Shown here: one piece after another, positions 29,501 to 46,367 of the stretch
Layout of the letters: the number at the start of each line of letters is the position of its first letter
Numbering within the stretch: position 1 is the first letter of the stretch
Program-made: the position numbers and the translations under genes
From: a phage
Length of the DNA stretch: 48,737 bases
Strand: one strand, 5' to 3'
Sequence record: PZ452607.1
Notes under the pieces: model-generated
The model's input: the letters and a program-made list of their open reading frames with translations, nothing else
What the model was told of the DNA's origin: nothing
Database searches by the model: none

Positions 29501-29913
29501 TTACAGACAAAGGTGATTATTTAGAATTTTACGAGAGAGACACAAGCGACACTCGAAAGGAGGATGCTCATCAGGTGGATTGTGTATCTTGGCTGAAATA
29601 CAATTTTCCTCACCTTCTATTTTGGCACACTGTCAATGAAGGTGAAAAAACAATCACATCGGCGCTCAGGGATGAGCAGGCAGGATTACTTAAAGGCGTG
29701 TCAGACTTCGTTATCCTGATTGGTGTTAACTCACGATACCCGTTTGCAGCAATCGAACTTAAGCGGGTTAATAAGTCAGGCAAAGGAAAGGCGTCACCAG
29801 TCAGCGACAAGCAAAGGGAATTTCTCCAAAAGGTCAGGGAGCGTGGCGGCTTCTCTGCCGTCGCATACGGATTCGGGCAATTCAAGATCGCAATTTACGA
29901 AATGATGAAATAG
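29497..29913 (+). CDS. VRR-NUC domain nuclease
   Basis: PD-(D/E)xK-like D..ELK core; overlaps helicase stop, a common helicase/VRR-NUC pairing. Confidence 0.55.
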   Translation: MITDKGDYLEFYERDTSDTRKEDAHQVDCVSWLKYNFPHLLFWHTVNEGEKTITSALRDEQAGLLKGVSDFVILIGVNSRYPFAAIELKRVNKSGKGKASPVSDKQREFLQKVRERGGFSAVAYGFGQFKIAIYEMMK

Positions 29914-29953
29914 CACTTTTTGTTAAAACTGCCGGGATGGAATCTGGCATTAT
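29909..29953 (+). promoter_or_regulatory. box + -10 element upstream of methyltransferase
   Basis: AATAGCACTTTTTGTTAAAAC, 22 nt, CATTAT; TAG of box is the stop of VRR-NUC gene. Confidence 0.45.
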
Positions 29954-29980
29954 TATCTCACCAAAACGAGAGGAATAAAA

Positions 29981-30694
29981 ATGAAAGACTTTAATGATAT
30001 CGAAACTATCGACTTTGCAGAAACTGGTTGCTCATTCACTCGCGAAGCAATAGCATCAGGCGGTTATTATCAGGCATTGAAAACGCCAACCTGTAAAGAG
30101 ATTTCAGGGCGTCGATACAAGGGGACAAATACCCCTGACGCTGTTCGTGATTTATGGTCAACTCCGCGAGAGGTTATTGCATACCTTGAGGGTCGTTATG
30201 GGAAATATGATCTCGACGCTGCGGCAAGCGAAGAAAATAAAGTTTGCGAGAAGTTTTACTCTCAGGAAACAAACTGCTTAAAACGTTGGTGGGGAAAGAA
30301 TAAGCACGTTTGGTTAAATCCTCCTTATAGCCGACCTGATATATTTGTCAAGAAGGCCATTGAGCAAATGGAGCACAACAATCAGATCGATATGCTTTTA
30401 CCTGCAGATAACTCTACTGCGTGGTTTACTGAAGCGCGGCAGAACGCAGCTGAAATAATCTGGATTGAAGCGGACTTGACTGAGGATATTGACGGCAATG
30501 AATACGCACGATCCGGTCGCCTGGCTTTCATATCCGGTGAAACTGGAAAGGCCGTAGACGGTAATAACAAAGGTTCGGTAATTTTTATTATGCGCGAACT
30601 TAAAGAAGGTGAGGTGCAACAGACTCACTACATCCCAATCACAAGCATTTGCCCTTCGGTGAAAAACAAACGAGCAAAGGTGAGGAAAGTATGA
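29981..30694 (+). CDS. DNA N6-adenine methyltransferase (Dam-type, NPPY motif)
   Basis: Catalytic NPPY motif and upstream SAM-binding-like region. Confidence 0.65.
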   Translation: MKDFNDIETIDFAETGCSFTREAIASGGYYQALKTPTCKEISGRRYKGTNTPDAVRDLWSTPREVIAYLEGRYGKYDLDAAASEENKVCEKFYSQETNCLKRWWGKNKHVWLNPPYSRPDIFVKKAIEQMEHNNQIDMLLPADNSTAWFTEARQNAAEIIWIEADLTEDIDGNEYARSGRLAFISGETGKAVDGNNKGSVIFIMRELKEGEVQQTHYIPITSICPSVKNKRAKVRKV

Positions 30695-30942
30695 TGAGCG
30701 AAAAAATGGTTCCTGTTAAATTAACTGAGCAAGGTTTATGGCTACTTTATCGAGCTACGTGCTGCGAAATTATGGAGCGAAACGGATTGACTCAGGATGT
30801 TATTGGTTGCGATCTGTGGGAGTTCACTAGTTCTCTTGATATGTCTTTCGATGAGATAAAAAATGAATACATAGAGAACTGGCCTTCAATCATACAGAAA
30901 GACGTGGAAGAACTTAAAGCTGATACAATCGTACAGCACTAA
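30691..30942 (+). CDS. hypothetical protein
   Basis: RBS GGTGAGGA; ATGA overlap with previous gene. Confidence 0.4.
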   Translation: MMSEKMVPVKLTEQGLWLLYRATCCEIMERNGLTQDVIGCDLWEFTSSLDMSFDEIKNEYIENWPSIIQKDVEELKADTIVQH

Positions 30943-30976
30943 TTGCTAAAACTACCCGGCGAAAGTCGGGTATAGT
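30935..30976 (+). promoter_or_regulatory. box + hairpin + -10 element
   Basis: AGCACTAATTGCTAAAAC, 22 nt, TATAGT; hairpin ACCCGGC gaaa GTCGGGT. Confidence 0.5.
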
Positions 30977-31008
30977 TATTTCATAGAAACGAAATGAGGA
31001 ATCAGAAG

Positions 31009-31218
31009 ATGGCACGCATTAACGCAAACTTTTTCAATATCGCTCAGCAGTCCGCAAAAATGGCTGTTCATATTACGAACAAGCAAGGCGGCAACTTCGA
31101 TTGGGATATTGCTATGAACTTCCTTAAAATGTCTTATTACCGTTGCTCAGTTGAAGAAGTCGAAGGCTTCATCTCTGACGTGGAGAAATTAACTAATGCT
31201 GATAAAAAAGCAAGGTAA
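31009..31218 (+). CDS. hypothetical protein
   Basis: RBS GAGGAA before ATG 31009; preceded by box/-10 element. Confidence 0.4.
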   Translation: MARINANFFNIAQQSAKMAVHITNKQGGNFDWDIAMNFLKMSYYRCSVEEVEGFISDVEKLTNADKKAR

Positions 31219-31468
31219 GCGCGAAGTGTGGGAGCACGCAAAGGAATGCGGCATCTCAGACGATATAGCATTAATTGCTAAATACTTTGATATAAAGGAT
31301 GTTAGCATTATATCAAACGGCAAGATTTCATTTATGGAAGGTATGCCGAGAAAAATGCAAAGAGTTCCAGCCACTCCATCACTTGAGTTTTACCGCGAAG
31401 AGGGAAAGAGAATTGAGCGAGAAAGAAAATCCACAAAAAACGGCAAGTCTTCCAGGCTTAAATATTAA
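31196..31468 (+). CDS. hypothetical protein
   Basis: ORF overlapping end of previous gene. Confidence 0.3.
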   Translation: MLIKKQGKREVWEHAKECGISDDIALIAKYFDIKDVSIISNGKISFMEGMPRKMQRVPATPSLEFYREEGKRIERERKSTKNGKSSRLKY

Positions 31469-31778
31469 TGCGGACGAATAACAGGCAATATGGATCGGGA
31501 AAAAGCAGGTTAAGCAAATCCCTTTCTCTGACTGGTTGCCACCTGACTTTGTTAATGTGCTTTGCACTATCGGTATTGAGCAGGAGTTGCATATAGGTTA
31601 CTACTCACCTGGCCGAAACAGTATGATGCTTGAGGTTGACGGAAAGCTCGTTGAGTTTAAATCTTCAGATCTAGGATTCTGGTTAAAGGCTGTGGCATGA
31701 AACTTTATTTTGCTGTAGTATTAACACCGCTAATTTCATTTTCAGTAATGTATTTCATTATCATGTAAGGATTAAAAT

Positions 31779-32912
31779 ATGTCACAAGCTAAAATCACTA
31801 CCGAGCAACTTATCGAAGAGCGCATGAGCGGCCTGACACTTCGCGAGATCGCGGAAAAGTACGGTATGCACATTCGCACTGTCGAGGCGCGTCACGCAAA
31901 ACTTGCAAAAGAAGGCCACTTCCACGGCAACGAGCATGTTGCTAAGATGGTTCCGGAAGGCTTCATGGTAAAAGGCACGTCAACCATGATTGACGCGGAA
32001 GGTAACGAGAAGATTCGTTGGGTTAAGACATCAGTTGATAATGAGCGCCTTGAGGTTCTAATGGAAAAAGCGCGTGAAGCATTCTGTTCAGAGTTGCCTA
32101 AGGCTATTCCATCTGAATCACCTGACGTTAGTTTTGATGAAGACACGCTTGCGATGTATCCAGTTTTTGATTTGCACATTGGTGCTCTTGCTCACAAACA
32201 TGAGTGCGGCGAAAACTACGACACAGCGACAGCAGAGAAGGTTATGAATGGGTTCTTTGACTACGCTGTAGATAAGGCGCCAAACTCAAAGAATGCCGTA
32301 TTGGTATTGGGTGGCGATTTCCTACATTACGACTCTTTGGAGTCTAAGACTCCAGCGTCAGGCCATTACTTAGATTCTGACAGTCGTTACGCTAAGCTTG
32401 TTTATGTCGCAATCCGATCAGTACGACGCGCAGTCTCTCGAATGCTGGAGAAGCACCAAGTTATTGATATTAAAGCAATAAGTGGGAATCACGACGAATC
32501 AGGGATGGTTTGGTTGCGCGCTGCGCTTGCTGCATTTTATGAAGATGAGCCGCGCGTAAATGTTGATGTTAGCCCTGCCGCAATGATGATGACCAGCTTT
32601 GGTAAGACCCTTATTGGATACACTCACGGGCATCAAATGCGAAAAGCAGATACTCGACTAAGTGTTATGGCAACTGATTTTCGTAAGTTGTTTGGTCAAA
32701 GTGATTACGTTTACACGCATAGCGGTCACTGGCACAGTCAAAAGATTACAGAAACAAACTTGGGTATTGATGAGGTTCATGGTCAGCTTGGAAGTCCTGA
32801 CGCATACTCTGCCAATGGCGGTTGGAGGTCTCAGCGTCAAGCTGCTGTGATTGTCTATCACAAGGAATTTGGTGAGGTTGGACGATTCATTTGTCGACCT
32901 GAAATGTTCTAA
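31779..32912 (+). CDS. calcineurin-like metallophosphoesterase with N-terminal HTH-like region
   Basis: Motifs DxH (DLHIG), GDxxD (GGDFLHYD), GNHD, GH, GHxH (HSGHWH) in canonical order. Confidence 0.6.
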   Translation: MSQAKITTEQLIEERMSGLTLREIAEKYGMHIRTVEARHAKLAKEGHFHGNEHVAKMVPEGFMVKGTSTMIDAEGNEKIRWVKTSVDNERLEVLMEKAREAFCSELPKAIPSESPDVSFDEDTLAMYPVFDLHIGALAHKHECGENYDTATAEKVMNGFFDYAVDKAPNSKNAVLVLGGDFLHYDSLESKTPASGHYLDSDSRYAKLVYVAIRSVRRAVSRMLEKHQVIDIKAISGNHDESGMVWLRAALAAFYEDEPRVNVDVSPAAMMMTSFGKTLIGYTHGHQMRKADTRLSVMATDFRKLFGQSDYVYTHSGHWHSQKITETNLGIDEVHGQLGSPDAYSANGGWRSQRQAAVIVYHKEFGEVGRFICRPEMF

Positions 32913-32956
32913 ATAGCACCTTTTGTTAAAACAGTACCCGCGAAAGCGGGTATTAT
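32913..32956 (+). promoter_or_regulatory. box + hairpin + -10 element upstream of HNH gene
   Basis: ATAGCACCTTTTGTTAAAAC, 22 nt, TATTAT; hairpin ACCCGC gaaa GCGGGT. Confidence 0.5.
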
Positions 32957-32984
32957 TGTTTTATAGAAACAAGAGGAGATTGCA

Positions 32985-33467
32985 ATGAACTGGCACGAGC
33001 ATTACGAATATAGGGATGGTGTTCTATATCACAAGGTAAAGCCATGCAGAAGGCATGATGTAAATATTGGGGATGTTGCTGGAAGGGTTGCCAAAAACGG
33101 CTATCACTATGTTGTTCACAAGAACAGGCCGTATAAGAGATCTCGAGTTATATGGGAGATGTTTAATGGTGAGATACCAGATGGTTTTGTTATAGATCAT
33201 CTGAATCACAATGCCACCGATGATAGGATCGATAACCTTGAGTGTAAGCCAAGAAGAGAGAATATGGTTAATGTTAAGTTAAGGATTGATAGCACGACCG
33301 GAGTAACTGGCGTATCAATAAAGAGGGATAACAAGTGGAGGGCGTACATAACAATTATGGGTAAGCAGAAGTGCAAGAGCTTTGACACGTTTGAGGAAGC
33401 TTGCGCGCAGAGGATTGAATGGTCAGTAACTCATGATTTTCACCCAAATCACGGTGGAACATACTAA
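32985..33467 (+). CDS. HNH homing endonuclease
   Basis: HNH core (DHLNHN..DDRIDNLE) plus AP2-like DNA-binding tail; paralogous to 37042..37581 and 45258..45752. Confidence 0.75.
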   Translation: MNWHEHYEYRDGVLYHKVKPCRRHDVNIGDVAGRVAKNGYHYVVHKNRPYKRSRVIWEMFNGEIPDGFVIDHLNHNATDDRIDNLECKPRRENMVNVKLRIDSTTGVTGVSIKRDNKWRAYITIMGKQKCKSFDTFEEACAQRIEWSVTHDFHPNHGGTY

Positions 33468-33485
33468 TAGCACCTTTTACCTAAC
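33466..33485 (+). promoter_or_regulatory. degenerate box copy
   Basis: AATAGCACCTTTTACCTAAC directly after HNH stop. Confidence 0.3.
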
Positions 33486-33539
33486 CCGCGCCACAGAAGT
33501 GCGGCATAGTAACCACATCGAAAACAGAGATGCTATATC

Positions 33540-33716
33540 ATGAAGATAGTCAAGTGCATCCGAAATGACTCCAAAACACTTCCATTCCGTGTAAATCAGA
33601 TCTATAGTGTTGGTTATGATTTCGGTGGGGGATTATTTGAGATTTACGACGGACGAGGTTCAGCAATCCAGACTCCTCTGAACGGTCACTACCTGGAATT
33701 TATTGAGATAGATTAA
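33540..33716 (+). CDS. small hypothetical protein (58 aa)
   Basis: Short ORF (not in track) followed by hairpin terminator; no strong RBS. Confidence 0.3.
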   Translation: MKIVKCIRNDSKTLPFRVNQIYSVGYDFGGGLFEIYDGRGSAIQTPLNGHYLEFIEID

Positions 33717-33737
33717 CAATAGCATTCATCACCTTAC

Positions 33738-33769
33738 AGGCTGGCATGATTTACATGCTGGCCTTTTTG
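33738..33769 (+). terminator. intrinsic terminator
   Basis: AGGCTGGCATG..CATGCTGGCCT stem (two wobble pairs) then T5. Confidence 0.45.
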
Positions 33770-33771
33770 CG

Positions 33772-33800
33772 TTGTGTCAAATAAATTTGAAGGTTAAAAT
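33772..33800 (+). promoter_or_regulatory. sigma70-like promoter for lysis cassette (TTGTGT-17-TAAAAT)
   Basis: Hexamers with 17-nt spacer about 35 nt upstream of holin ATG. Confidence 0.4.
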
Positions 33801-33834
33801 CGACTCACTTGTTCAAAAAATATATGGTGAGATT

Positions 33835-34050
33835 ATGAAAGAGTTTTTAACGGCTGCTACGTCAAGCACTGGCGGTGCTTCGTTGGTAGGGGCGGCGACA
33901 GGGCAACTTTATATTGCTGGCGCTACATTCATTTGCTTTCTGCTTTTTGGTGCCTGGGGAGCGTACTGGAAGTATCGTGATAGCAAGGCAATTCAGGAAG
34001 CGTTAAACGATGGCGATCTAAATAAGGCGCTTAAGATCAGGGGGAGATAA
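33835..34050 (+). CDS. holin
   Basis: 71-aa protein with hydrophobic TMD, immediately upstream of endolysin; RBS GGTGAG. Confidence 0.45.
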
Positions 34051-34538
34051 TGAGTTTAAAAAATAACGTTATAGGCGCATCAATCGGGGCCGCTTTGACG
34101 TTGACACCTACCCTACTGGAACGGATCGAAGGTATAGAATACGAGGTTTATTACGATATCGCCGGAGTCCCTACCGTATGCAGCGGAATAACCGGGCCTG
34201 ACGTCATACCTGGTAAGAAATACACTAAGCGAGAATGCGATGCATTGCTGATAAAACATATCGGCGTCGCTCAGCGATACGTTGACAAGAAGGTTAAGGT
34301 TGACATTCCGGTAACTATGCGCGCATCACTGTATAGCTTCACTTTCAACGTTGGGACTGGCGCTTTCGGATCGTCTACAATGCTTAAGCTAATCAATCAG
34401 CGCAAGCACAAAGAAGCGTGTAATCAGTTATGGCGATGGGTATACTACTACAACCCAAAAACCAAAAAGCGCGAAGTGTCGAGAGGGATCAAGAATCGGC
34501 GCGCTGAAGAATACGCATATTGCGTTAAGGAACTATAA
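34050..34538 (+). CDS. endolysin (lysozyme, GH24-like)
   Basis: Catalytic triad spacing E-x8-D-x5-T ([13 protein letters not shown]); ATGA overlap with holin. Confidence 0.7.
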
Positions 34539-34939
34539 TGAAACTTAAGAAAACGTGCATTGCAATTACGGTTGCTGTTGGTGTGATTTCTCTATCCGGT
34601 TGTTCGACGGCATCTGCTCTGAGTGGTTTACTTTCTGACTCCCCGGATGTTACGGCGCAGGTTGGCGCTGAGAACACAAAACAACTAGCAGGAGTAACAG
34701 CAAAGGCGGATGATAAGCGAGAAGTGAAGGTGAGTGATTCAAATATTGGCAAGATTGACTCATCCGTCAAGAAGTCCGTGGAGGTGTCAACCATTCAGGC
34801 CAACACGGTTAACGCTGAAAGCATCACAGTAACCAAATCTGGAAGCTGGTACGATCCTGTGGTTTGCTGGATTCTCGTTTTTATTGTCCTGTTGCTGTTT
34901 TATTTTTTAATTCGTAAGCACGAAAAAAAGGAGGCGTAA
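34538..34939 (+). CDS. unimolecular spanin (lipoprotein with C-terminal TMD)
   Basis: Lipobox LSGC at N-terminus and a single C-terminal TMD, the T1 gp11-type architecture. Confidence 0.6.
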   Translation: MKLKKTCIAITVAVGVISLSGCSTASALSGLLSDSPDVTAQVGAENTKQLAGVTAKADDKREVKVSDSNIGKIDSSVKKSVEVSTIQANTVNAESITVTKSGSWYDPVVCWILVFIVLLLFYFLIRKHEKKEA

Positions 34940-34954
34940 GCCTCCTTTCTTATT
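34922..34954. terminator. bidirectional terminator at end of lysis cassette
   Basis: AGGAGGC gta GCCTCCT flanked by A-run upstream and T-rich tract downstream; overlaps spanin stop. Confidence 0.5.
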
Positions 34955-35061
34955 TGTACCTTTTGACGTGAAGTAGCAACTCCCCATCCTGATCGCAAAG
35001 ATTGTGCTCACCGTCGTTATTGGCCCTCATCGAAGTGAGCAGTAGGCTAAGTAATCCTTGC

Positions 35062-35469: not shown

Positions 35470-35473
35470 ATTA

Positions 35474-37042
35474 TTAACCCATCAGTCGAGGATTGATGAA
35501 AACAATATCATCAATCCGGCAAGTGTAGTTCATCTCTTCGAGCGTGATCAGCAGGCTGTCGATTCGCTCAGCTACTTTTTGTTGACCGTTGAACGGCGTA
35601 ACGTTACGGCACTTTGCAACAATGCTATGAATAGGTGCGCGACCTTTGTTCTTCTTTGCGATCTCAGTGATAACATCAATCAGCTTACGAGATTCAGCCT
35701 CATCACCAGCATACCCGGCGGCGCTGGCAGACGACAGATAGGTTCTGGAAAGCTCATTGAAAATCATGATCGCTTCCTGCATTGTTTCAAGGTCAATCTC
35801 ACGGTTGGAACGGTTCGGTGATTCACCCTCCCAGTTCTTGATTGTGTGAAGAACTGAAGCAATGCGCAAAGCGTGCTTATCGAACTTGCCGAGATGACCG
35901 CGTAGCATTGAGTGAGAGTATTTGCCCCCGGCTGCGAAATCCGGCTCCATAGCCTGGCGAGCAAGGTTTAATTCACGCATAGCATTACGGCTTACAGAGA
36001 GAACAACGTTGTCCTCCTTCATAATGTTGTGCACAAGTCGATAATATTTACTCACCAATCCTCGATCGACTTCCTTATACAGTGCATCACCATTTTCATC
36101 GCAAAGAATACGAGTGCCTAAAAGAGGTTCCTCGCGAACCAATAGGAAACGCTCAGATACACCGATACCGCGCTGGCCTGCGTCCATGATACCCTTGATT
36201 GTTTCATCCTGCGCAATGACGCAGATCGAACCGACCGGGCAAAGAGATAAGTTATTGTCCTGATTTGAACGCGCAACCTCCATATGGTTTTTATCCCACG
36301 CCTTGAGGATAAGCTCGCTGTTTGATTTCTTATCAGAACCGCCATAAGTCAGGCCAAGCAATGTATTTATTGCCGTTGCCTCATCAGAGATTACGGAAAA
36401 GTGGCCTTGAACAGCAGCTACTTTCGCAAGACCTTCCGGTGTAGGATCTGATACCGCGAAAACAATATCAGCCATCTTCTTGATCTTCTCTTCCAGTTTT
36501 TCCTTGTCCTCGTACAGCGCCGCCGTCGTGTTACCCTTCGGATCGTTTTTGATTTCCTTCTCGATCTGACGTAGCTGACTGGTTAAACGGATACGTTCCT
36601 TTTTGCGCTCTTCATTCAGTCTCTGAATCTCTGCGCGCATAGGTGTAATCGCCGCTGAGTTAATCGCGGATTTACCTGTTGATGGTGGCTGGCTAATCAC
36701 CATATAAAGAGCGGTCGGTTGTTCTTCTCCGTGATATTGCACCCAAAACTTCCCTAGCATCGCGGCTGAGATGCACCCAATGAAATGAGCGTACGCAGAC
36801 GAAACAGGAAACTGTACAGACTCAGCTTTTGCTTTTGCATATTCGAATACCAGGTTATCGCCACCTAACGAAATCAGCGGGAACTTATCGTTTCCACTGT
36901 TGATATCGATCGGGTCTTGCCAAAACGAAACTGAATCCCCGTAGCTGTTTTCACGAATTGCGATCGCCACCGGATTAACTCCAGTGCTATTTGCGATCTC
37001 AATAATCTGTTGGTAATTCAGTTTTGGCTTAATATTAAACAT
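35474..37042 (-). CDS. P-loop ATPase, putative replication protein (DUF3987-like)
   Basis: Walker A-like PPSTGKS and Walker B-like VIAQDE; RBS AAGGAG before ATG (minus) at 37042; track ORF has 21-codon N-extension. Confidence 0.45.
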   Translation of the reverse strand: MFNIKPKLNYQQIIEIANSTGVNPVAIAIRENSYGDSVSFWQDPIDINSGNDKFPLISLGGDNLVFEYAKAKAESVQFPVSSAYAHFIGCISAAMLGKFWVQYHGEEQPTALYMVISQPPSTGKSAINSAAITPMRAEIQRLNEERKKERIRLTSQLRQIEKEIKNDPKGNTTAALYEDKEKLEEKIKKMADIVFAVSDPTPEGLAKVAAVQGHFSVISDEATAINTLLGLTYGGSDKKSNSELILKAWDKNHMEVARSNQDNNLSLCPVGSICVIAQDETIKGIMDAGQRGIGVSERFLLVREEPLLGTRILCDENGDALYKEVDRGLVSKYYRLVHNIMKEDNVVLSVSRNAMRELNLARQAMEPDFAAGGKYSHSMLRGHLGKFDKHALRIASVLHTIKNWEGESPNRSNREIDLETMQEAIMIFNELSRTYLSSASAAGYAGDEAESRKLIDVITEIAKKNKGRAPIHSIVAKCRNVTPFNGQQKVAERIDSLLITLEEMNYTCRIDDIVFINPRLMG

Positions 37043-37581
37043 CACAATAAACTCCTTAGTTGACGGCGTGAATGATACACCGTCAATGGTACACGCGTTT
37101 TGCAAAAAGTGCTATTCGATCCGTGATTCTCATGAAAACCGTATAGCCTTTCCGCTTCCTTCCTTGCTTTAGCCGCTGCATCCAGCGTCATGAAGGTCCC
37201 TAAGTGTTTTGTCTTTTTATTTATGGTTATGTTTGCCGTGTATCTATTTGTTTTTTTATTCCAATACACTCCCATAACTCCTGTGTTTGATGACACTACT
37301 CCCTTGTTTCTTAGGTTGTCTTGCCTAGTTACTAGCCTGAGATTCTCAATTCTGTTATCGTCTCTTTCATGGTTTATGTGGTCTACATCCATTCCTTCTG
37401 GTATGTTTCCGTAGTGTATTTTCCATACTATTCGATGGGCGTATTCAAATACACCTCCTGGAAAACATATTGACCGATAACCTTTTTTATTAACAGTTCC
37501 GGCAAGTAGATTTCGTCTTCTTCCGATTCTCCACTCTTTCCAGTACAGTCTCCCGCTAACGTATTTCAGTTCATCTTTCAT
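37042..37581 (-). CDS. HNH homing endonuclease
   Basis: HNH core (DHINHERDDNRIENLRLV) plus AP2-like tail; C-terminal about 25 codons read through the promoter box of the downstream gene; stop overlaps next start (TGATG). Confidence 0.7.
   Translation of the reverse strand: MKDELKYVSGRLYWKEWRIGRRRNLLAGTVNKKGYRSICFPGGVFEYAHRIVWKIHYGNIPEGMDVDHINHERDDNRIENLRLVTRQDNLRNKGVVSSNTGVMGVYWNKKTNRYTANITINKKTKHLGTFMTLDAAAKARKEAERLYGFHENHGSNSTFCKTRVPLTVYHSRRQLRSLL
37072..37116 (-). promoter_or_regulatory. box + hairpin + -10 element upstream of ATPase gene (inside 3' end of HNH ORF)
   Basis: Minus strand AATAGCACTTTTTGCAAAAC, 22 nt, TATCAT; inverted repeat TTGACGGTG/CGCCGTCAA around -10. Confidence 0.5.
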
Positions 37582-37994: not shown

Positions 37995-38030
37995 TGTGTT
38001 CGCTCCTGATTGGTTATCTTGAATAAGGCC

Positions 38031-38076
38031 ACTTTATCAAATGACCTTACGGCAATATTAACAAATCGTGCTATTT
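38031..38076 (-). promoter_or_regulatory. box + hairpin + -10 element
   Basis: Minus strand AATAGCACGATTTGTTAA, 22 nt, TAAAGT; box follows TAA stop of acidic-protein gene. Confidence 0.5.
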
Positions 38077-38512: not shown

Positions 38513-38545
38513 TTTTGATTCCTTTGTTTTGTTTGGTATGGGAGT

Positions 38546-38592
38546 AATATACCTTACTCCCCGATGTGTGTCTTTAGCAATTTGTGCTATCA
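38546..38592 (-). promoter_or_regulatory. box + hairpin + -10 element
   Basis: Minus strand GATAGCACAAATTGCTAAAG, about 22 nt, (G)TATATT; stem GGGGAGTA/TACTCCC. Confidence 0.45.
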
Positions 38593-39050: not shown

Positions 39051-39066
39051 TATTCCCCCTAACCAG

Positions 39067-39631: not shown

Positions 39632-39663
39632 AATACTTTCCTCGTTTACTGTTGATGTGATGA

Positions 39664-39709
39664 ATCATACCCAGTAGACATGGATAAGTCGTTAGCAAAA
39701 AATGCTATT
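39664..39709 (-). promoter_or_regulatory. box + -10 element upstream of leftward early block
   Basis: Minus strand AATAGCATTTTTTGCTAACG, 23 nt, TATGAT. Confidence 0.45.
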
Positions 39710-39787
39710 CCAATAATTGCTCATTATTCCATCAATACTGGAATATCTGGAATAATCACTATCATGATTGATCTCTAATGATGAGAT

Positions 39788-39827
39788 GTGATTGTTGCAT
39801 GGTGTGCAACTGTTGATGTGATTGTTT
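39788..39827. repeat. direct repeats GATGTGATTGTT (third related copy near 39652)
   Basis: gatgtgattgttgca...ctgttgatgtgattgtttc; ctgttgatgtgatgaatca at 39650..39668. Confidence 0.5.
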
Positions 39828-39893
39828 CTTAGAATGCAATGATTGTGAGAGGGGGGATCTAGTGTTACCAGGTTCGCCTGGTAGTCATCTCCA

Positions 39894-39915
39894 TTTTTAG
39901 CAAAAAGTGCTATCG
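39894..39915 (-). promoter_or_regulatory. box copy, second (distal) copy upstream of leftward early block
   Basis: Minus strand GATAGCACTTTTTGCTAAAAAT followed by hairpin ACCAGG cgaa CCTGGT. Confidence 0.4.
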
Positions 39916-40190: not shown

Positions 40191-40217
40191 CGATTAACAC
40201 GATTAACACGATTAACC
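40191..40217. repeat. tandem 9-bp repeat CGATTAACA x3
   Basis: cgattaaca cgattaaca cgattaacc; related copies CGATTACGATTACG at 39914..39927 and AAATTACGCC x2 at 39982..40001. Confidence 0.6.
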
Positions 40218-40260
40218 ACACTTAAAATCGCCCCGCAGACCTTGACACATGCGGGTCGTC

Positions 40261-40293
40261 GTGTAACACTACGATTAGAGACACGGTGTTACA
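40261..40293. repeat. inverted pair GTGTAACAC ... GTGTTACA upstream of first rightward early gene
   Basis: Half-sites about 17 bp apart, just downstream of a TTGACA hexamer at 40242. Confidence 0.5.
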
Positions 40294-40331
40294 TGTTAAT
40301 CATGGTGTATATTGAAACTAAGGAGAAAGCT

Positions 40332-40907
40332 ATGAGTTCTTACCAGTCAGACGCAGTACAGGCAGCAATCAAGGCAGCTTACGAGAAGGCCGGAGTAACG
40401 GTTGAGCAGCGACCGGAGGCAAAAGTGACCGATGTTATCCGGGCCGCCTGCGATCAGCTTTATGGTGATGGCGAGAATACCGAGTTCACATTCGACGCGA
40501 ATAAGATGGCTGAGGCCGCAGCAAGAAAGTCGATGCCAGACGCTGACGAACATGATGTTGCCAAAGGCGCCGAGTCCTGGTTGCTCGGGAAGACGGATGA
40601 GATTAACGAGAAGTTTAAATCCTCATTCATCACCCCGATCGTTTCTCGACACTTCTCCAAGATCGGCAAGTCGGTCAAGGTGAGCGTGACCATGAACGAT
40701 GAGAAGTTGCGAGTCGTTACTATCTCAGTGAGTGACGAAGAAGTTCCGGTGAAGAAGCGCCGCAGCCGGAAAAAAGTCAGCCTGGCTGATTGTCTGGATT
40801 CGTTTGTTCCTGATGTTGATGATCTTGAGAAAGGCGACGTTACTGTAAGCACCGTGCGCGACCTGGTTCGCCAGATGAAAGCGCATATCGAAAAATGTGG
40901 ACTGTAA
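40332..40907 (+). CDS. hypothetical early protein (first gene of rightward early block)
   Basis: RBS AAGGAGAAAG before ATG 40332; preceded by iteron-rich control region; basic C-terminal patch KKRRSRKK. Confidence 0.45.
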   Translation: MSSYQSDAVQAAIKAAYEKAGVTVEQRPEAKVTDVIRAACDQLYGDGENTEFTFDANKMAEAAARKSMPDADEHDVAKGAESWLLGKTDEINEKFKSSFITPIVSRHFSKIGKSVKVSVTMNDEKLRVVTISVSDEEVPVKKRRSRKKVSLADCLDSFVPDVDDLEKGDVTVSTVRDLVRQMKAHIEKCGL

Positions 40908-40919
40908 GGAGAAGTAATT

Positions 40920-41246
40920 ATGTTTAATATCAAACCATTAACAGAAGCAGAGAAACAGGCTCAGGCCAAGCAAACCGAAAACATCCAAGTGATCGCTGAT
41001 GCGCTGATTGGTAAGAGGTCAATCAAAATAAACCTCGACACTGTTGGTCAGTCATTTTTTACTAAAGGTTTGGATAAGTACGTTATAAATGTGAAGGCGA
41101 GAGACCTGGTGGCGAGAATTCAAAAGCTAAACAATCAAAAGCTAAAGCTCATCAAGGTCGAAGGCAACATGTGCGAAATTGAGAACCTCAGCGCACCAGA
41201 CCCGAATAAGTGGGAAATCACCGATGTCGAGTTTATCGTAGAATAG
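40920..41246 (+). CDS. hypothetical protein
   Basis: RBS AAGGAGAAG; stop TAG lies inside a box copy. Confidence 0.45.
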   Translation: MFNIKPLTEAEKQAQAKQTENIQVIADALIGKRSIKINLDTVGQSFFTKGLDKYVINVKARDLVARIQKLNNQKLKLIKVEGNMCEIENLSAPDPNKWEITDVEFIVE

Positions 41247-41286
41247 CACTTTTTGTTAAAACCGGATCGGGGTATCTTGCTATAGT
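41243..41286 (+). promoter_or_regulatory. box + hairpin + extended -10 element
   Basis: AATAGCACTTTTTGTTAAAAC, 22 nt, TGcTATAGT; stem GGGGTA/TACCCC. Confidence 0.55.
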
Positions 41287-41324
41287 TACCCCATCAAAAC
41301 GAGATACCAATCAGAGGAATCACC

Positions 41325-41555
41325 ATGTCAATCGTCAAGAACCAGCAAGCCATCGATTCAACCAATAACAACCGCTTTGCTATTTTCATCACTCGCGACA
41401 ACAAGCGCTTTGCAGTAAAGGCCGTACCAGGTGGATACAAAACCTACATGGAAGATAACGGAAAGTGGGTGCGGTGCGACAACCTCGCAAACTTCTTGGT
41501 CTGGAACGCAGACCTGCAGGGATTCGATGACATCAGCACTTTAATTGAGGAGTAA
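41325..41555 (+). CDS. hypothetical protein
   Basis: RBS AGAGGAA; box/hairpin/-10 element upstream. Confidence 0.45.
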   Translation: MSIVKNQQAIDSTNNNRFAIFITRDNKRFAVKAVPGGYKTYMEDNGKWVRCDNLANFLVWNADLQGFDDISTLIEE

Positions 41556-41560
41556 TAATC

Positions 41561-41788
41561 ATGCCACGTTACAGCAACCTAACTCAACTAACCCGCGTCA
41601 ACGGGCACATGATCCCGGCAAAATCCACTCACTACGCAATGGGAGCAAAGCACGGATTGTATTTCAAATGGCGCGGTCAATGGAACTTCACGGTTATTCG
41701 TAATTTCTACATTAGAGTTACAGGTGATGACCCGCAATCGGTCGTAGAGAACTCAATCGGCGACAACAAGATCGAGGTGCTGAAATGA
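41561..41788 (+). CDS. hypothetical protein
   Basis: RBS GAGGAG shortly after previous stop. Confidence 0.45.
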   Translation: MPRYSNLTQLTRVNGHMIPAKSTHYAMGAKHGLYFKWRGQWNFTVIRNFYIRVTGDDPQSVVENSIGDNKIEVLK

Positions 41789-41895
41789 ACTTCAACATAA
41801 TTGCTTTCTGGTCTGCCGTATGGTTCTTTTGCGTAGGTCATGTTGTGGTTGGAATCGTAATCATGTTGCTACTGTGTGCGGGAGCGTTCGAATGA
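41785..41895 (+). CDS. small hydrophobic membrane peptide (36 aa)
   Basis: ATGA overlap with previous gene; one predicted TMD; not in ORF track. Confidence 0.35.
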   Translation: MNFNIIAFWSAVWFFCVGHVVVGIVIMLLLCAGAFE

Positions 41896-42065
41896 TGCGG
41901 ATTCTGATTTGCATGATGGCGGCGGTCGCCATGGCTATCCTGGTAGTGTCCGGCTGCGGCGAGGCCAGGGATAGCTGTCATGAAACCGGGAGCCAGGTTA
42001 CTACTTTCGTGATGGTTGGCAACGTATTGCTACCAATAACATCAAATGAAATCACTTGCGAATAG
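41892..42065 (+). CDS. small lipoprotein (57 aa)
   Basis: Signal peptide with lipobox VVSGC; start overlaps stop of preceding peptide; stop inside a box copy. Confidence 0.4.
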   Translation: MMRILICMMAAVAMAILVVSGCGEARDSCHETGSQVTTFVMVGNVLLPITSNEITCE

Positions 42066-42105
42066 CACTTTTTGTTAAAACTCAACTCCGGGGTTGCGAT
42101 ATAGT
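42061..42105 (+). promoter_or_regulatory. box + hairpin + -10 element
   Basis: AATAGCACTTTTTGTTAAAAC, 22 nt, TATAGT; stem GGGGTT/AACCCC. Confidence 0.55.
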
Positions 42106-42136
42106 AACCCCATCGACAACGAACGAGGACGCAAAC

Positions 42137-42625
42137 ATGAAAATTAAATTACTTAGCAATGGCGGTTACAAGGGATTCACCCGCGACCTGGAAGCTGACC
42201 CTATCGTGGTTGACGCGGTTAAGTGCGACTCAAGTACTGGAGGCTACCGCGTTAAGGTTGATGACCTTGTAAAAGCTGGCGTGTACGATCTTGATTATGG
42301 CCTGTCGGTTAGCCCGGTATTTGGCCCAGCTGACTTCAACGAGAAAGACGGAACGATGTTCTTTTTTGATTGGGAAGTGAAGGCAAACATCAAGCCGCGC
42401 AAGGTTCGTCTTCTCAGCAATGGCGGCTACCCGATGCGACCAGGTTATGAGAATCGCACGTTCCCGGTTATCGTTGACTTCATTGGGACAACTGACAACT
42501 TGGTATACGTTAGCCATGAGCAACTTAAGGCAGTTGGATTCGTTGGCGGTATGAATAAAGAAGCGCTTTGCTTCTTCCATCGATGTCCAGAGCCGATCGG
42601 TATTGAGTGCGAGTTAGTATACTAA
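42137..42625 (+). CDS. hypothetical protein with internal duplication
   Basis: Two copies of K(I/V)(K/R)LLSNGGY motif about 100 residues apart; box/-10 element upstream. Confidence 0.45.
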   Translation: MKIKLLSNGGYKGFTRDLEADPIVVDAVKCDSSTGGYRVKVDDLVKAGVYDLDYGLSVSPVFGPADFNEKDGTMFFFDWEVKANIKPRKVRLLSNGGYPMRPGYENRTFPVIVDFIGTTDNLVYVSHEQLKAVGFVGGMNKEALCFFHRCPEPIGIECELVY

Positions 42626-42666
42626 GCACGAATTGTTAAAAGGGGATTTGGCCTGACTGGTATAAT
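42621..42666 (+). promoter_or_regulatory. box + hairpin + extended -10 element
   Basis: AAGCACGAATTGTTAAAAG, 22 nt, TGgTATAAT; stem GGGGATT/AATCCCC. Confidence 0.55.
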
Positions 42667-42696
42667 CCCCACATCAACCACTAATAGGAAAGCATC

Positions 42697-42894
42697 ATGT
42701 TAAAATTAAAAGATATTCAGTTCCCTGTAGTATTTAACACTATTAGCTGCGGTAAAATAACCTGCCACAGCAAAGATCGCGCAACAGATTCATCATTCAA
42801 TGAGTGCCACCCGTCTATTGTTGGTAATCTTATTGAGCTTCATAACAATCACAATCCTGATAACATCCCATCTCTTCCATATTATGTTGAGTGA
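42697..42894 (+). CDS. hypothetical protein
   Basis: Cys/His-containing 65-aa ORF downstream of box/-10 element with TATAAT. Confidence 0.4.
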   Translation: MLKLKDIQFPVVFNTISCGKITCHSKDRATDSSFNECHPSIVGNLIELHNNHNPDNIPSLPYYVE

Positions 42895-42984
42895 GTCGGG
42901 CCTGGTTGGAAGGTTGGTCGCTCCATCTTCCATGCAGCAAAGCCAGAAATCAAGCCAGCGCTACAATGCACTCAGATCGAGAAC

Positions 42985-43182
42985 ATGCCATTGAGCGCGA
43001 CACTAAAAGGTGTCCAACTTGATAGCGAATCCTGGATCGAGATTACCGCCACGCCTAAAACTATTGAGGTACATGATGATGTGGTGATTCTCCTGTTGCA
43101 TTACGGCAGCTTTAAGCACAAGACGGTATCAGGTGAAATCAGCATTAAGCGCGGAACTCTTGTCCGCTACGAGGTGAAATAA
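42985..43182 (+). CDS. hypothetical protein
   Basis: ORF with weak RBS. Confidence 0.3.
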   Translation: MPLSATLKGVQLDSESWIEITATPKTIEVHDDVVILLLHYGSFKHKTVSGEISIKRGTLVRYEVK

Positions 43183-43331
43183 TGACTGCATGGGTCTTGA
43201 TTATCTTGATGAGCAAAGGTCCGGATCACGTATACATGGAAAGTCAACAATCATGCAACAAGGCACGGGAAGTTATCGCAGAGAACAAGCCGTTCGGATA
43301 TGAAGTAAAAACTATGTGCGTTAAACGATAG
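43182..43331 (+). CDS. small hypothetical protein (49 aa)
   Basis: ATGA coupling with previous gene; N-terminal hydrophobic stretch; stop TAG inside box. Confidence 0.3.
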   Translation: MTAWVLIILMSKGPDHVYMESQQSCNKAREVIAENKPFGYEVKTMCVKR

Positions 43332-43371
43332 CACGAATTGCTAAACCTTCCGCAAGGCCATTTGATATAGT
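43327..43371 (+). promoter_or_regulatory. box + hairpin + extended -10 element
   Basis: GATAGCACGAATTGCTAAAC, 22 nt, TGaTATAGT; stem GGCCA/TGGCC. Confidence 0.55.
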
Positions 43372-43411
43372 GGCCTTATTGAAGCACGACAACCAACTGG
43401 AGGTAAAATTT

Positions 43412-43786
43412 ATGAAATTCGAATGTATCAGCGATAACACCAAAAAATTTACTGTTGGCAAAATTTACGATGTTCCGACTGAGCACACAGAGCAAACCGT
43501 AGCTCTGACCGACGACACGGGCCGCAACCGAATTGCAACCGTAACTCACAACGGTGAAGGTCTTCGCTGGAATAGCGGCGGCACTAAGTTCGCAACGTTC
43601 GACAAGAAGCGCAAGCGCACCTTCCGCGTCAACGGCAATGTTGCAGCTAACAAGATCCATAACGTCAAGCCGTCGGAAGTTGACCGCAAGCCAGCGCTGA
43701 AGTTTAAAGAGAAGGTGGATTTATTCAATCTTGCCGCCTCGCTTGTTCTCCTGGTCGCTGCTATTTCGCTGCTTTCCATCATGTAA
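43412..43786 (+). CDS. hypothetical C-tail-anchored membrane protein
   Basis: RBS GGAGG; soluble basic domain then one C-terminal TMD; followed by terminator. Confidence 0.45.
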   Translation: MKFECISDNTKKFTVGKIYDVPTEHTEQTVALTDDTGRNRIATVTHNGEGLRWNSGGTKFATFDKKRKRTFRVNGNVAANKIHNVKPSEVDRKPALKFKEKVDLFNLAASLVLLVAAISLLSIM

Positions 43787-43793
43787 TGCTAAT

Positions 43794-43828
43794 GGGGAAT
43801 CGACTCTGAACGGTTCCCCTTTCTTTTG
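43794..43828 (+). terminator. intrinsic terminator
   Basis: GGGGAA..TTCCCC stem then T-rich tract. Confidence 0.5.
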
Positions 43829-43934
43829 GAGAAAACACTATGCCAGACTTTTCTAACTGGAATAACGAGCCGCCATCATTTCAGGAGTTGCTATTCTGCC
43901 TCCTGGTCCTGACATTATCTCTTAAGGGTGTTTT

Positions 43935-44153
43935 ATGGCTACTATCATGACAGTAGAAGATGCAGCACGCGATGCAGTGGAAGGAATGCGCCCAAATACC
44001 TCCAGAATAGCACACTACTACAAATCTGAGGTGTCGGTAGTGCAATTGGTCCACGAAATTTTAAGGCTCCCACAAGTCGATTCAGCGCGCGTTGTGACGT
44101 GCTTAAAAAATTATTTTTGCATCACTATTAAAACGAATAGCACGAATTGCTAA
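43935..44153 (+). CDS. hypothetical protein
   Basis: 72-aa ORF; 3' end reads through box copy; overlaps a possible 36-aa hydrophobic ORF at 43840..43950. Confidence 0.3.
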   Translation: MATIMTVEDAARDAVEGMRPNTSRIAHYYKSEVSVVQLVHEILRLPQVDSARVVTCLKNYFCITIKTNSTNC

Positions 44154-44180
44154 AACCTATCAAGGGGAATACGCTATGAT
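44136..44180 (+). promoter_or_regulatory. box + hairpin + -10 element
   Basis: AATAGCACGAATTGCTAAAAC, 22 nt, TATGAT; stem GGGGAAT/ATTCCCC. Confidence 0.55.
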
Positions 44181-44210
44181 TCCCCTACACCAACAAACGA
44201 GGAAGCGATC

Positions 44211-44657
44211 ATGAAACACTTAATCTGCATTGAAGCGCCTAACGATCAATACACCCTGCATGGACTTGGTGTGTTCAAAGGTCACTACATTACCGCAGGA
44301 ACTTACGATGCTCGTCGCGGCGATGGCGACCTAATGATTACGTCAAAAGAAGTAAATCCGTACATCATGCAGAATCTTGGCAATAACGAATATATGGCCT
44401 ATGGCTGCAACGCGGTGTACAAGCACGTTAAGATCCGCAAGCGTGTTGTGCGTGCATTCAAGAAGATTGCAATTAAATACTGGAAAATGAGCAAGAAAGA
44501 TGCCGGACGTTGGGCGCGCAACGTTGCAGATTCATACTTCTATCGTAACGGCGAATCCTGCTACTTCCTGATCGATGAACTTATGGAAAACTACGGTGGC
44601 GACTTCAGCCAGGGTAGCTTTGATGACTGGGCCAACTATGAGATCAGTTGCTGGTAA
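44211..44657 (+). CDS. hypothetical protein
   Basis: RBS GAGGAAG; box/hairpin/-10 element upstream. Confidence 0.45.
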   Translation: MKHLICIEAPNDQYTLHGLGVFKGHYITAGTYDARRGDGDLMITSKEVNPYIMQNLGNNEYMAYGCNAVYKHVKIRKRVVRAFKKIAIKYWKMSKKDAGRWARNVADSYFYRNGESCYFLIDELMENYGGDFSQGSFDDWANYEISCW

Positions 44658-44700
44658 TAGCACGAATTGCTAAAACTTGCTCAAGGGCATTTGTTAGAAT
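44656..44700 (+). promoter_or_regulatory. box + hairpin + extended -10 element
   Basis: AATAGCACGAATTGCTAAAAC, 22 nt, TGtTAGAAT; stem AAGGGCATT/AATGCCCTT. Confidence 0.55.
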
Positions 44701-44740
44701 GCCCTTCGTTGAGTTAAGCAACCAATCAGAGGAATAAATC

Positions 44741-45271
44741 ATGGATAAAATCACAATTTGGGGCCAGACAATCAACCTGTTTCTCGGCACGCGCCGAGTG
44801 GCAATCTTTGACTTTGACGGGACACTTAGCGATGGATCTGGTCGACTTCACCTGCTGCCAACAAAGGATTTGCACTTGACTGAAAGCTGGTCTGAGTTTA
44901 ACCGAGCGGCAATATTTGATAACCCAATCCAGAGCACGATCGATGTGATGAACTCTATGTTTGCCGCTGGGTATCATGTGATCATTTTAACCGGGCGAAG
45001 TGATGAGGTGCGTTACGCATCTGAGTTATGGCTTAAGCATCACGGCGCTCGATATGATTACTTAGTCATGCGACCGCATACCGACAACCGCAAAGACACG
45101 GTAATGAAAGAAGAGGCAGTGCGCGCTATCGGCATTGATAACATTCTTGCGGCTTGGGATGACTCAGTGAATATAATAAAAAAATTCAGAGATCTAGGGA
45201 TAACCACATATCAGGTTTGTGAATATGCCTGTGATAGTCGAGAGGATTTAAATAGTCATGGTGTCGATTGA
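44741..45271 (+). CDS. HAD-superfamily phosphatase
   Basis: Motif I FDFDGT, motif II ILTGR, motif IV WDDS. Confidence 0.6.
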   Translation: MDKITIWGQTINLFLGTRRVAIFDFDGTLSDGSGRLHLLPTKDLHLTESWSEFNRAAIFDNPIQSTIDVMNSMFAAGYHVIILTGRSDEVRYASELWLKHHGARYDYLVMRPHTDNRKDTVMKEEAVRAIGIDNILAAWDDSVNIIKKFRDLGITTYQVCEYACDSREDLNSHGVD

Positions 45272-45752
45272 TAACAAATCAATGGTAAGAGAGTTATTTA
45301 CTTATTCTGACGGCGTTCTGTATTGGAAGGCCAAATCATCTAAATACAGTAGAACTAAAATAGGAGGCGCGGCAGGAAGCAAGGATAAAGACGGATACAT
45401 AATAATCAGAGTAAGAAACGAAACTAGAGGCGCTCACAGGCTTGTATGGATATACCATAATGGCAAGATACCTGATGGAATGGAGGTAGACCATATGGAT
45501 GGAGACATAACAAACAATAGAATAGAAAACCTAAGATTGGTAACGAGAACCATAAATAACAGGAATCAAAAAAAGAGATCTGATAACACAACCGGAGTAT
45601 CCGGTGTAACTTTCATGAAAGATAGAGGAAAGTATAGGGCGCAAGTTAGAAACAAGAGACTCGGGCAGTTCGACACAATAGAAGAGGCCGCCAAAGCAGT
45701 AAAGGATGAGCGGGATAGATTAGGTTTATTCACAAAAAGACACGGGGTGTAA
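45258..45752 (+). CDS. HNH homing endonuclease
   Basis: HNH core (DHMDGDITNNRIENLRLV) plus AP2-like tail; lies between phosphatase and kinase genes. Confidence 0.75.
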   Translation: MVSIDNKSMVRELFTYSDGVLYWKAKSSKYSRTKIGGAAGSKDKDGYIIIRVRNETRGAHRLVWIYHNGKIPDGMEVDHMDGDITNNRIENLRLVTRTINNRNQKKRSDNTTGVSGVTFMKDRGKYRAQVRNKRLGQFDTIEEAAKAVKDERDRLGLFTKRHGV

Positions 45753-45754
45753 AC

Positions 45755-46327
45755 ATGAAAACAGCTATCATTTTAAACGGCGCACCTGGTGCGGGAAAGG
45801 ACACTATCGGATGCATCCTGGCTGACACTTACGATCATGTAGCGCTACGCAGCTTCAAAGCGCCAATGTTTGAGATTGCCCGAGCAATCCTGGGTGAGAC
45901 TAATTTCGAGTATTTCATGTTCTTGTATGAGGACCGTCGCTATAAAGAAGAGCCAGCGTCAATCCTGAACGGTAAAAGCCCGCGCCAGTTTATGATCTGG
46001 ATTAGCGAGGAGGTCATCAAGCCGCAGTTCGGAAATCGCTTCTTCGGTATGCGAGCGGAAAGTAAGGTGAAAGAGTCGCATTCACTTTCGGTATTTACTG
46101 ACGGTGGATTCAAAGACGAGATCTTGCAGATGATTGAAGGTGACATCCAGGTCAAGCTGTGTCGAATCCATCGCAACGGTTGCAACTTTGACAACGACAG
46201 TCGCGACTATATCTATCTTGACGATATGATCGGGGTCAACGGTTATCAGGAGTGTGACTTCTTTTCTGTCGAAGGCCATCCAGAAATTACCGCTCAGCAC
46301 ATAGCCGCCACGTTCATCAATAAATAG
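45755..46327 (+). CDS. P-loop nucleotide/polynucleotide kinase
   Basis: Walker A GAPGAGKDT at N-terminus; size fits dNMP kinase or Pnk kinase domain. Confidence 0.55.
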   Translation: MKTAIILNGAPGAGKDTIGCILADTYDHVALRSFKAPMFEIARAILGETNFEYFMFLYEDRRYKEEPASILNGKSPRQFMIWISEEVIKPQFGNRFFGMRAESKVKESHSLSVFTDGGFKDEILQMIEGDIQVKLCRIHRNGCNFDNDSRDYIYLDDMIGVNGYQECDFFSVEGHPEITAQHIAATFINK

Positions 46328-46367
46328 CACGAATTGCTAAAACGTCGGTGTGGTGATTTGATATAGT
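46323..46367 (+). promoter_or_regulatory. box + extended -10 element
   Basis: AATAGCACGAATTGCTAAAAC, 22 nt, TGaTATAGT; TAG of box is the kinase stop codon. Confidence 0.55.

Follow-up and report, generated by a model that had tools for sequence, protein, structure and literature searches.

Results

Predicted promoter modules in the early regions of T1

The phage DNA studied here (record PZ452607.1, 48,737 nt; hereafter the window) is the genome of coliphage T1 in rotated form, with the large terminase as its first gene and 99.9% identity to NC_005833. Gene names and coordinates are those of the T1 annotation, carried over to window positions. Our subject is a short repeat, here called the box, which lies ahead of many of the early genes. 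The shorter form AATAGCAC occurs 16 times in the window, against 1.67 copies expected from shuffled sequences, and scoring the full form aATAGCACnnnTTGnTAAAAC along the window gives about 25 copies. The consensus of the boxes in the modules described below is aAATAGCACnnnTTGyTAAAAc. The box is also the most abundant repeat of at least 20 nt in these genomes.

The repeat itself is already known. In phage TLS, reannotated in 2024, a direct repeat of 21 nt, aaATAGCACnnnTTGnTAAAA, has been described that is the same element as the T1 box; its orientation follows transcription, and it stands about 76 nt ahead of start codons (PMC11447400). The TLS authors note that T1, Rtp and Rogue1 have repeats like it, give no more than three canonical promoters, and leave the function of the repeat open between a stoperator, an enhancer site and an UP element (PMC11447400). 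Stop-codon overlap, a match to the marbox, a fixed spacing to the −10 hexamer and box-bounded insertions or deletions are not mentioned in the accessible part of that account (PMC11447400), and the marbox reading and the box-bounded events appear to be new.

Boxes head 17 modules of fixed geometry in T1, all of them co-oriented with the gene downstream. On the plus strand, these modules precede ST22 (helicase; 27400..27481), ST20 (dam; 29909..29980), ST18 (30932..31008), ST15 (HNH endonuclease; 32912..32984), ST14 (33466..33539, a degenerate copy, AATAGCACCTTTTACCTAACC), ST75 (41242..41324), ST71 (42061..42136), ST70 (42622..42696, a variant beginning CTAAGCAC), ST68 (43327..43411), ST65 (44136..44210), ST64 (pnk; 44656..44740) and ST61 (46323..46399). 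On the minus strand, they precede ST24 (primase; 26860..26953), ST9 (helicase; 37043..37116), ST7 (37995..38075), ST5 (38513..38591) and ST1 (39632..39709), the last of these being the leftward operon's first module. A box is present at about 40% of early gene junctions. The initial annotation of this DNA had taken each small early gene for a cassette bounded by boxes; the units between boxes in fact hold 1-7 genes (mean about 2.6), and single genes make up only 3 of the 17.

The modules follow one order. After the box come an 18-nt spacer, in which the hairpin has its 5' arm, and then the −10 hexamer; a CA-rich leader that includes a Shine-Dalgarno (SD) sequence leads on to the start codon. 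The −10 hexamer begins 18 nt after the end of the box in most modules (rarely 19-21 nt), and 72-94 nt separate the start of the box from the start codon. The ST22 module, which lies in the divergent region with ST23, is an example, with its box at 27400-27420, the −10 hexamer TATTAT and a GTG start at 27482. Other −10 hexamers are TATAGT, TATAAT and similar sequences, with a TGn extension in many cases. In the family consensus 3' of the box, too, 84% of sites have a G at −14, and TATAnT follows. A CA-rich motif (CATCGACAACGA..GAGG) is common to the leaders that connect the −10 with the SD sequence, for example at 41289-41324, 42108-42136 and 46370-46399.

None of the 17 modules has a −35 hexamer at a spacing of 16-18 nt. 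The TTGyTA of the box sits 22 nt from the −10, which is too far for a −35. A scan with the sigma-70 consensus found 15 matches in the window against 17.3 in shuffles, with no module among them, and canonical sigma-70 promoters were therefore dropped as an account of the modules. Because the scan finds no module and TTGyTA is too distant, the modules are best read as promoters of the extended −10 type, with the box in place of the −35 region. The primary role of the box, which the initial annotation missed, is thus predicted to be that of a promoter element.

A stem of 6-10 bp lies between the box and the start site in 16 of the 17 modules, either preceding or enclosing the −10 (z-scores −1.9 to −6.1). 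Stem sequences vary between modules. The records of T1 and of its relative SA32RD list several of the hairpins as rho-independent terminators, that of the ST18 module being one in T1; the ST24 module has a strong hairpin followed by a T-run. The exception is the ST1 module (z = −0.15), which has no upstream gene. That the sole module without a significant hairpin is also without an upstream gene fits an attenuating role on incoming transcription. An Rfam search with the hairpins returned no match at the gathering threshold, and a known RNA family was dropped as a candidate.

Match of the box to the host marbox

The core of the marbox has been given as 5'-gcannwwntgnnaaa-3' (Grainger laboratory, PMC12052159). 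The box sequences GCACGAATTGCTAAA and GCACTTTTTGTTAAA match this core at 15 of 15 positions. Perfect cores occur 20 times in the window, where 0.82 are expected and at most three were seen in any of 100 shuffles, and 18 of these 20 are boxes. Among the modules, 13 of 17 contain a perfect core and three more differ by one mismatch. The enrichment extends to the Drexlerviridae: their loci (2.78 Mb) contain 1354 perfect cores against about 21 expected, at a density of 5-7 per 10 kb in each of three divergence tiers, TLS and Rtp included.

Position and orientation agree as well. In class II promoters the marbox lies forward over the −35 region, centred between −36 and −55 (PMC12052159), and the class II site of micF lies at about −41 (PMC8811837). 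All marboxes of the T1 modules are forward, and their centre falls at about −41 if transcription starts 7 nt after the inferred −10. The box therefore appears, from its sequence, to fit the class II geometry of Mar/Sox/Rob promoters. Its conservation is asymmetric: the G at core position 1 never varies, whereas the base opposite it in the dyad is C in 56% and T in 41% of cases, and C4 and T8, each more than 90% conserved, are not complementary. Asymmetric conservation is as expected for a monomeric protein with a pair of helix-turn-helix (HTH) motifs.

The activator would probably be supplied by the host. A tblastn search for a MarA/SoxS homologue in the phage, with MarA and SoxS as queries, gave nothing better than E = 0.5, and Pfam scans of 20 early T1 proteins found no AraC or HTH_18 domain; a phage-encoded MarA-like activator was dropped on these results. 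Rob is constitutively abundant in the host, and for this reason it is our candidate activator, with MarA and SoxS as alternatives. A search of the accessible literature for links of the marbox or Rob to phage promoters returned nothing relevant.

Stop codons at the box

Upstream open reading frames (ORFs) are packed right against the box. Sixteen box promoters have an adjacent co-directional upstream gene, and in 15 of them the last base of the upstream stop codon falls at box position +0 to +17. No upstream gene ends before the box, and the only one to read through it is the HNH gene ST8.

All of the stop codons listed in the initial annotation are where it placed them. The TAG of the box is the in-frame stop of ST21 (29911-29913, in the ST20 module), ST76 (41244-41246, ST75 module), ST72 (42063-42065, ST71 module), ST69 (43329-43331, ST68 module) and ST62 (46325-46327, ST61 module). 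A TAA adjoins the box, overlapping its first one or two bases, at the ends of ST16 (32910-32912, ST15 module), ST6 (38077-38075 on the minus strand, ST7 module, first base only) and ST65 (44655-44657, ST64 module); the TAA of ST65 is in frame with the box TAG and makes a tandem stop. Four further genes can be added. The HNH gene ST15 ends at a TAA (33465-33467), with the TAG of the ST14 box next in the same frame. ST4 ends at a TGA that overlaps the start of the ST5 box, whose TAG again follows in frame. ST71 ends at a TAA within the variant box of ST70, and ST19 at a TAA in the variable NNN of the ST18 box, in which CAG replaces TAG.

Two genes had been described as running on through the box. 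This is correct for ST8 (37042..37581, minus strand), whose frame passes the whole promoter and ends on the start codon of the helicase gene ST9, such that the ST9 module is translated in T1 as the last 25 codons of ST8. It is incorrect for ST66 (43935..44153), which stops inside the ST65 box at the TAA of ...GCTAAAAC (box positions 16-18; 44151-44153). ST23 ends in the same way, at the TAA of GCTAAAAC in the box of the ST24 module, which lies in its last codons.

Only six of the 77 T1 genes end in TAG, and five of these are box TAGs (Fisher p = 0.0012). Family-wide, we counted 682 non-identical box promoters with an upstream open frame of at least 45 codons in 153 related loci, sites that are not independent in phylogenetic terms. 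The stop starts at the box TAG in 340 of these promoters (50%), and between box positions −2 and +16 in 581 (85%).

Of the three frames of the box, two contain a stop (TAG at positions 3-5, TAA at positions 16-18), so that an ORF entering the box has two chances in three of ending within it; for the remaining frame, a TAA or TGA stands at the box edge. The frames of upstream stops in T1 (9/2/5) are not significantly skewed (chi-square p = 0.10), and a TAG-frame preference in T1 was dropped accordingly. Across the family the TAG frame is in excess (about 60% of sites), which is real in the counts and confounded by shared ancestry. The real regularity is the packing of upstream ORFs against the box, and the stop-codon overlap is best explained as a modest consequence of tight packing against a motif with stops in two frames.

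A variant is found in SA32RD (L002, 32849-32889) and eight other HNH-less Tunavirus relatives. Their ST16 alleles read through a box with TCG for TAG (GGATCGCACTAATTG) and stop at a TAA in the variable triplet of the box. This shows that the TAG may disappear from the box if its frame is required by the upstream ORF.

Breakpoints and exchange of genes at the box

We compared T1 with 24 relatives of 77-91% identity. Their 260 alignment ends form 61 breakpoint clusters, 49 of which lie in early regions. In these regions, clusters are in excess at box 5' edges (6 observed, 0.79 expected, P = 1.4e-4), at the 3' edges of modules, i.e., the SD sequence or ATG (12 observed, 1.35 expected, P = 7e-9), and at box-less gene edges (9 observed, 2.5 expected, P = 8e-4); within genes they are depleted (14 observed, 39.6 expected). 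The expectation that gene-content breakpoints coincide with boxes is thus borne out in part: they are enriched at box 5' edges, but 43 of the 49 clusters lie away from them.

Insertions and deletions (indels) were collected from an all-against-all comparison of 154 sequences, the window plus 153 Drexlerviridae loci, in which 224 pure insertions reduce to 98 distinct events. Thirteen of the 98 run from box to box in exact register, with the box as a junction repeat of 14-59 nt (median 21), and one of the 13 is the cassette of the HNH gene ST15 in T1. Another 26 end in the leader, SD sequence or ATG of a module, with homology of up to 29 nt; the leader/SD stretch is the second commonest indel junction repeat among the relatives. 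The remainder comprises 24 events with one end at a box 5' edge and 35 located elsewhere. The initial annotation had proposed that the arrangement favours exchange at the shared box. The box-to-box events agree with this, although most T1 breakpoints are found at other places.

Several loci illustrate the pattern. At the ST75 module, homology resumes exactly at the box start in 12 relatives, and the slot upstream is occupied by ST76 in T1 and by the unrelated SA32RD_53 in SA32RD, both of which end in the box TAG. SA32RD also has an extra 64-aa ORF after ST72, with GAATAG repeats at its flanks, and a 1.07-kb insertion of three genes at the 3' edge of the ST68 module. At the box of the ST1 module (39709), relatives carry cassettes of 1-1.85 kb with box-containing flanking repeats, including a DNA methylase in SA32RD. 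These comparisons show that boxes bound exchangeable units. The pattern of presence and absence is the footprint expected of recombination between repeated boxes, a mechanism that we infer from the compared genomes.

T1 itself has a gene-less stretch of about 200 nt (39710-39893) next to the ST1 module. It lies between box 39709 and a solo box (39894..39914, minus strand), which has neither a −10 nor a gene and is situated 205 nt upstream of the module. As relatives carry cassettes here, T1 looks like the deleted state.

Three HNH genes had been placed exactly at box junctions. This holds for ST15 (32985..33467, plus strand), which together with its promoter forms a box-flanked cassette, and for ST8, whose insertion point lies precisely between the ST7 stop and the box. 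It does not hold for ST63 (45258..45752, plus strand), which overlaps pnk, has ST62 directly after it and is absent in 12 relatives. Intact junctions are found in HNH-less relatives at both box-associated sites. Seven relatives lack the ST8 segment (37117-37579) and have the ST7 stop 2 nt ahead of the box, and a single intact box occupies the ST16/ST14 site of Rtp (L077) and L126. In T1, JMPW2 and L078, this latter site contains a promoter and HNH cassette between direct repeats of the box 5' half, AATAGCAC(C)TTTT. The left copy of the 13-nt repeat AATAGCACCTTTT is in the ST15 module and the right copy in the ST14 module, whose 3' half, CCTAAC, is homologous to the box of the empty site in Rtp. 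Besides Rtp and L126, nine Tunavirus relatives lack the ST15 cassette. A box promoter precedes only about a quarter to a third of the family's HNH genes, with about 6 of some 25 having the box 73-80 nt upstream, and a general rule of HNH genes at boxes was dropped on this survey.

Other features of the window

Some boxes lie in the late regions. Two perfect copies are in the structural region, one in the ST48/ST47 spacer (6123-6143, minus strand) and one in the ST41/ST40 spacer (9887-9907, minus strand). Both point the opposite way to the late genes, and neither is followed by a minus-strand gene downstream. At the usual spacing, the 9907 box is followed by an extended −10-like motif, TGATAAGAT, which makes antisense transcription or a class I (reverse-orientation) role possible. 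A repeat family at the late junctions 16019-16096, 48105-48174 and 13840-13884 combines a strong terminator hairpin, a T-run and an extended −10-like motif (TGTATAATG / TGCAATATG). At the first two of these junctions, a box lies about 10 nt further downstream, just ahead of the SD sequences of ST33 and terS. The position of these two boxes is repressor-like, not activator-like.

Differences between the window and NC_005833 include the following. The tail gene ST33 has one copy fewer of a 99-bp tandem repeat (around 18862-18986), an in-frame deletion. Two small early genes each have a single-base nonsense change: G196T in ST70, giving TGA at 42892-42894, and C69A in ST17, giving TAA at 31479-31481. 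In the product of ST21 (29497-29913), which the annotation lists as hypothetical, a VRR-NUC nuclease domain is clear (E = 4.6e-14); the product of ST77 (40332-40907) has only sub-threshold matches, to DUF7174 and the anti-CRISPR family AcrF2.

Discussion

We consider it probable that each short early or middle operon of T1 begins with a composite terminator-promoter module, of which the box forms the upstream half. A monomeric host activator with two HTH motifs, Rob with MarA or SoxS as backup, would bind the box, and the bound activator would replace the missing −35 contact. The hairpin would attenuate or terminate transcription arriving from upstream. Since the box is the most abundant long repeat in these genomes, box-to-box blocks would be gained, lost and swapped via recombination between boxes, with the conserved leader/SD region as a second exchange point.

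A number of observations weigh against this interpretation, and rival explanations draw on them. The box could be the operator of a phage-encoded or other dimeric regulator, for which the Cro-like ST23 is a candidate, or a stoperator-type silencer. The box contains a partial dyad, TAGCA-N5-TGCTA, that a dimeric factor might use; ST23 has a weak match to the P22_Cro HTH (E = 4.5e-5, below the Pfam threshold); and the boxes at 16076 and 48154 stand downstream of extended −10 motifs, where a repressor would be expected. A Keio single-deletion screen with the T1-like phage LL5 reported mutants in the lipopolysaccharide core, tolC, ppiB and secB, and its text does not mention rob, marA or soxS (PMC7229145). 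This silence argues against a strict requirement for any one of these factors, although a partial effect could be hidden by three-factor redundancy or by basal extended −10 activity. The operator reading is nevertheless unlikely. Conservation of the box is asymmetric, with its invariant G1 and non-complementary C4 and T8, and the dyad is only partial, which leaves a palindromic operator as a minor rival. Furthermore, the first promoters used after injection are already boxed, before any phage protein is made, and a marbox core matched 15/15, correctly oriented and positioned, would hardly arise by chance.

We give similarly little weight to the proposal that boxes are chiefly recombination linkers, through which single early genes and HNH genes are exchanged box-to-box, with the stop codon in the box as part of the design. 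Its strongest evidence is the set of 13 in-register indels with the box as junction repeat, together with the ST15 cassette between box half-repeats and the intact single box at the empty site of Rtp. ORF-precise swaps that finish in the same box TAG and the 7.6-fold enrichment of breakpoints at box 5' edges point in the same direction, and the family-wide TAG-frame excess would fit ORFs that move with their box. However, a fixed 18-nt spacing to the −10, co-orientation with genes downstream and a distance of 72-94 nt to the start codon are typical of promoters, and recombination has no need of them. The exchanged units would also have to be single genes, whereas box-to-box units contain up to seven, and ST63 and most HNH genes of the family lie away from boxes. 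Box-less junctions and gene starts are equally prone to breakpoints: a breakpoint falls on 5 of the 16 box edges and on 6 of the 24 junctions that have no box. In the T1-centred test, breakpoints thus track gene boundaries generally, without special favour to boxes, and this counts against the recombination step of the composite module as well.

The same step is denied altogether by the least probable alternative, in which boxes are promoters with no part in recombination, and breakpoints lie where they do because selection kept genes intact when illegitimate events occurred at random. In its favour, breakpoints are in excess at gene boundaries of all kinds, boxed or box-less, and the 24 indels with one end at a box edge have homology of just 0-7 nt, but the longest indel junction repeats (14-59 nt) are almost all box in exact register, the second class of long junction repeats is the leader/SD stretch, which is the other repeated sequence of the modules, and T1 has its own annotated recombination genes, ST29 (RecE-type) and ST28 (Erf-type). 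RecE/Erf-type systems can use short homologies. With about 40% of early junctions boxed, some box-to-box events are to be expected anyway, and because only in-register hybrids give a working promoter, selection on illegitimate events could mimic the in-register pattern.

The composite terminator-promoter module has a wider implication, which we put forward as a tentative possibility that is somewhat less likely to be right than wrong. The Drexlerviridae may have wired nearly all of their early and middle transcription to the host Mar/Sox/Rob system, via about 18 class II marboxes per genome that double as cassette linkers. If so, phage gene expression would depend on Rob, and bile salts, oxidative stress and antibiotics would modulate it via Rob, SoxS and MarA. 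Operon-sized cassettes, homing-endonuclease genes included, would be shuffled between phages through the same boxes. T1-like phages are abundant coliphages and Klebsiella phages that are used in therapy cocktails, and their transcription has been a puzzle. The class II marbox reading offers a testable transcription model and a possible link between host regulators of stress and antibiotic resistance and the growth of these phages.

Comparison with known systems

The stoperators of mycobacteriophage L5 are short asymmetric repeats that are intergenic and oriented with transcription (as cited in PMC11447400). T1 boxes share all of these features. In L5 the sites are bound by the lysogenic repressor, and their placement relative to a −10 hexamer is not fixed. 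Given that the position of the T1 box is fixed relative to the −10, and that T1 is virulent, the box is not a stoperator in the L5 sense.

A closer likeness exists to host class II marbox promoters such as micF, lpxC P2 and rfaY P1 (PMC12052159, PMC8811837). Both have an asymmetric gcannwwntgnnaaa site in forward orientation, which overlaps the −35 region and is centred at about −41, and in both the −35 is weak or absent. Host marboxes are degenerate and occur once per promoter, whereas T1 has about 18 near-consensus copies. Additional flanking sequence is conserved in the T1 marboxes, with AATA preceding GCAC, a T preceding TG, and also TAAAAC.

The closest known analogues of the whole T1 module are the PeSLs of T4-type phages, early promoters with a stem-loop (Arbiol et al. 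2010, PMC2839356; Comeau et al. 2014, PMC4122927). PeSLs have sigma-70 −35 and −10 elements with an AT-rich upstream region. T1 modules have the −10 only, with a 20-bp marbox-like element instead of the −35, and they belong to Drexlerviridae siphoviruses. Promoter and terminator activity, like the formation of mini-circles, further marks the PeSL type. The likeness lies in the architecture. Both open with the stop codon of the preceding gene, continue with an early promoter and a stem-loop, and close with the SD sequence and start codon of the gene that follows; in PeSLs the stem-loop lies between the −35 and −10 or over the −10 (PMC2839356). In T1, this composite from stop to ATG is seen in 15 of 16 stops and 16 of 17 hairpins. 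Both also occur in many copies, in plastic regions rich in small ORFs, and both bound indels and replacements between relatives; in T1 these are the motif-bounded indels described above. The box-bounded indels thus suggest that PeSL-style, promoter-mediated gene shuffling extends beyond T4-type myoviruses, and they help explain the plastic, ORFan-rich arms of Drexlerviridae genomes.

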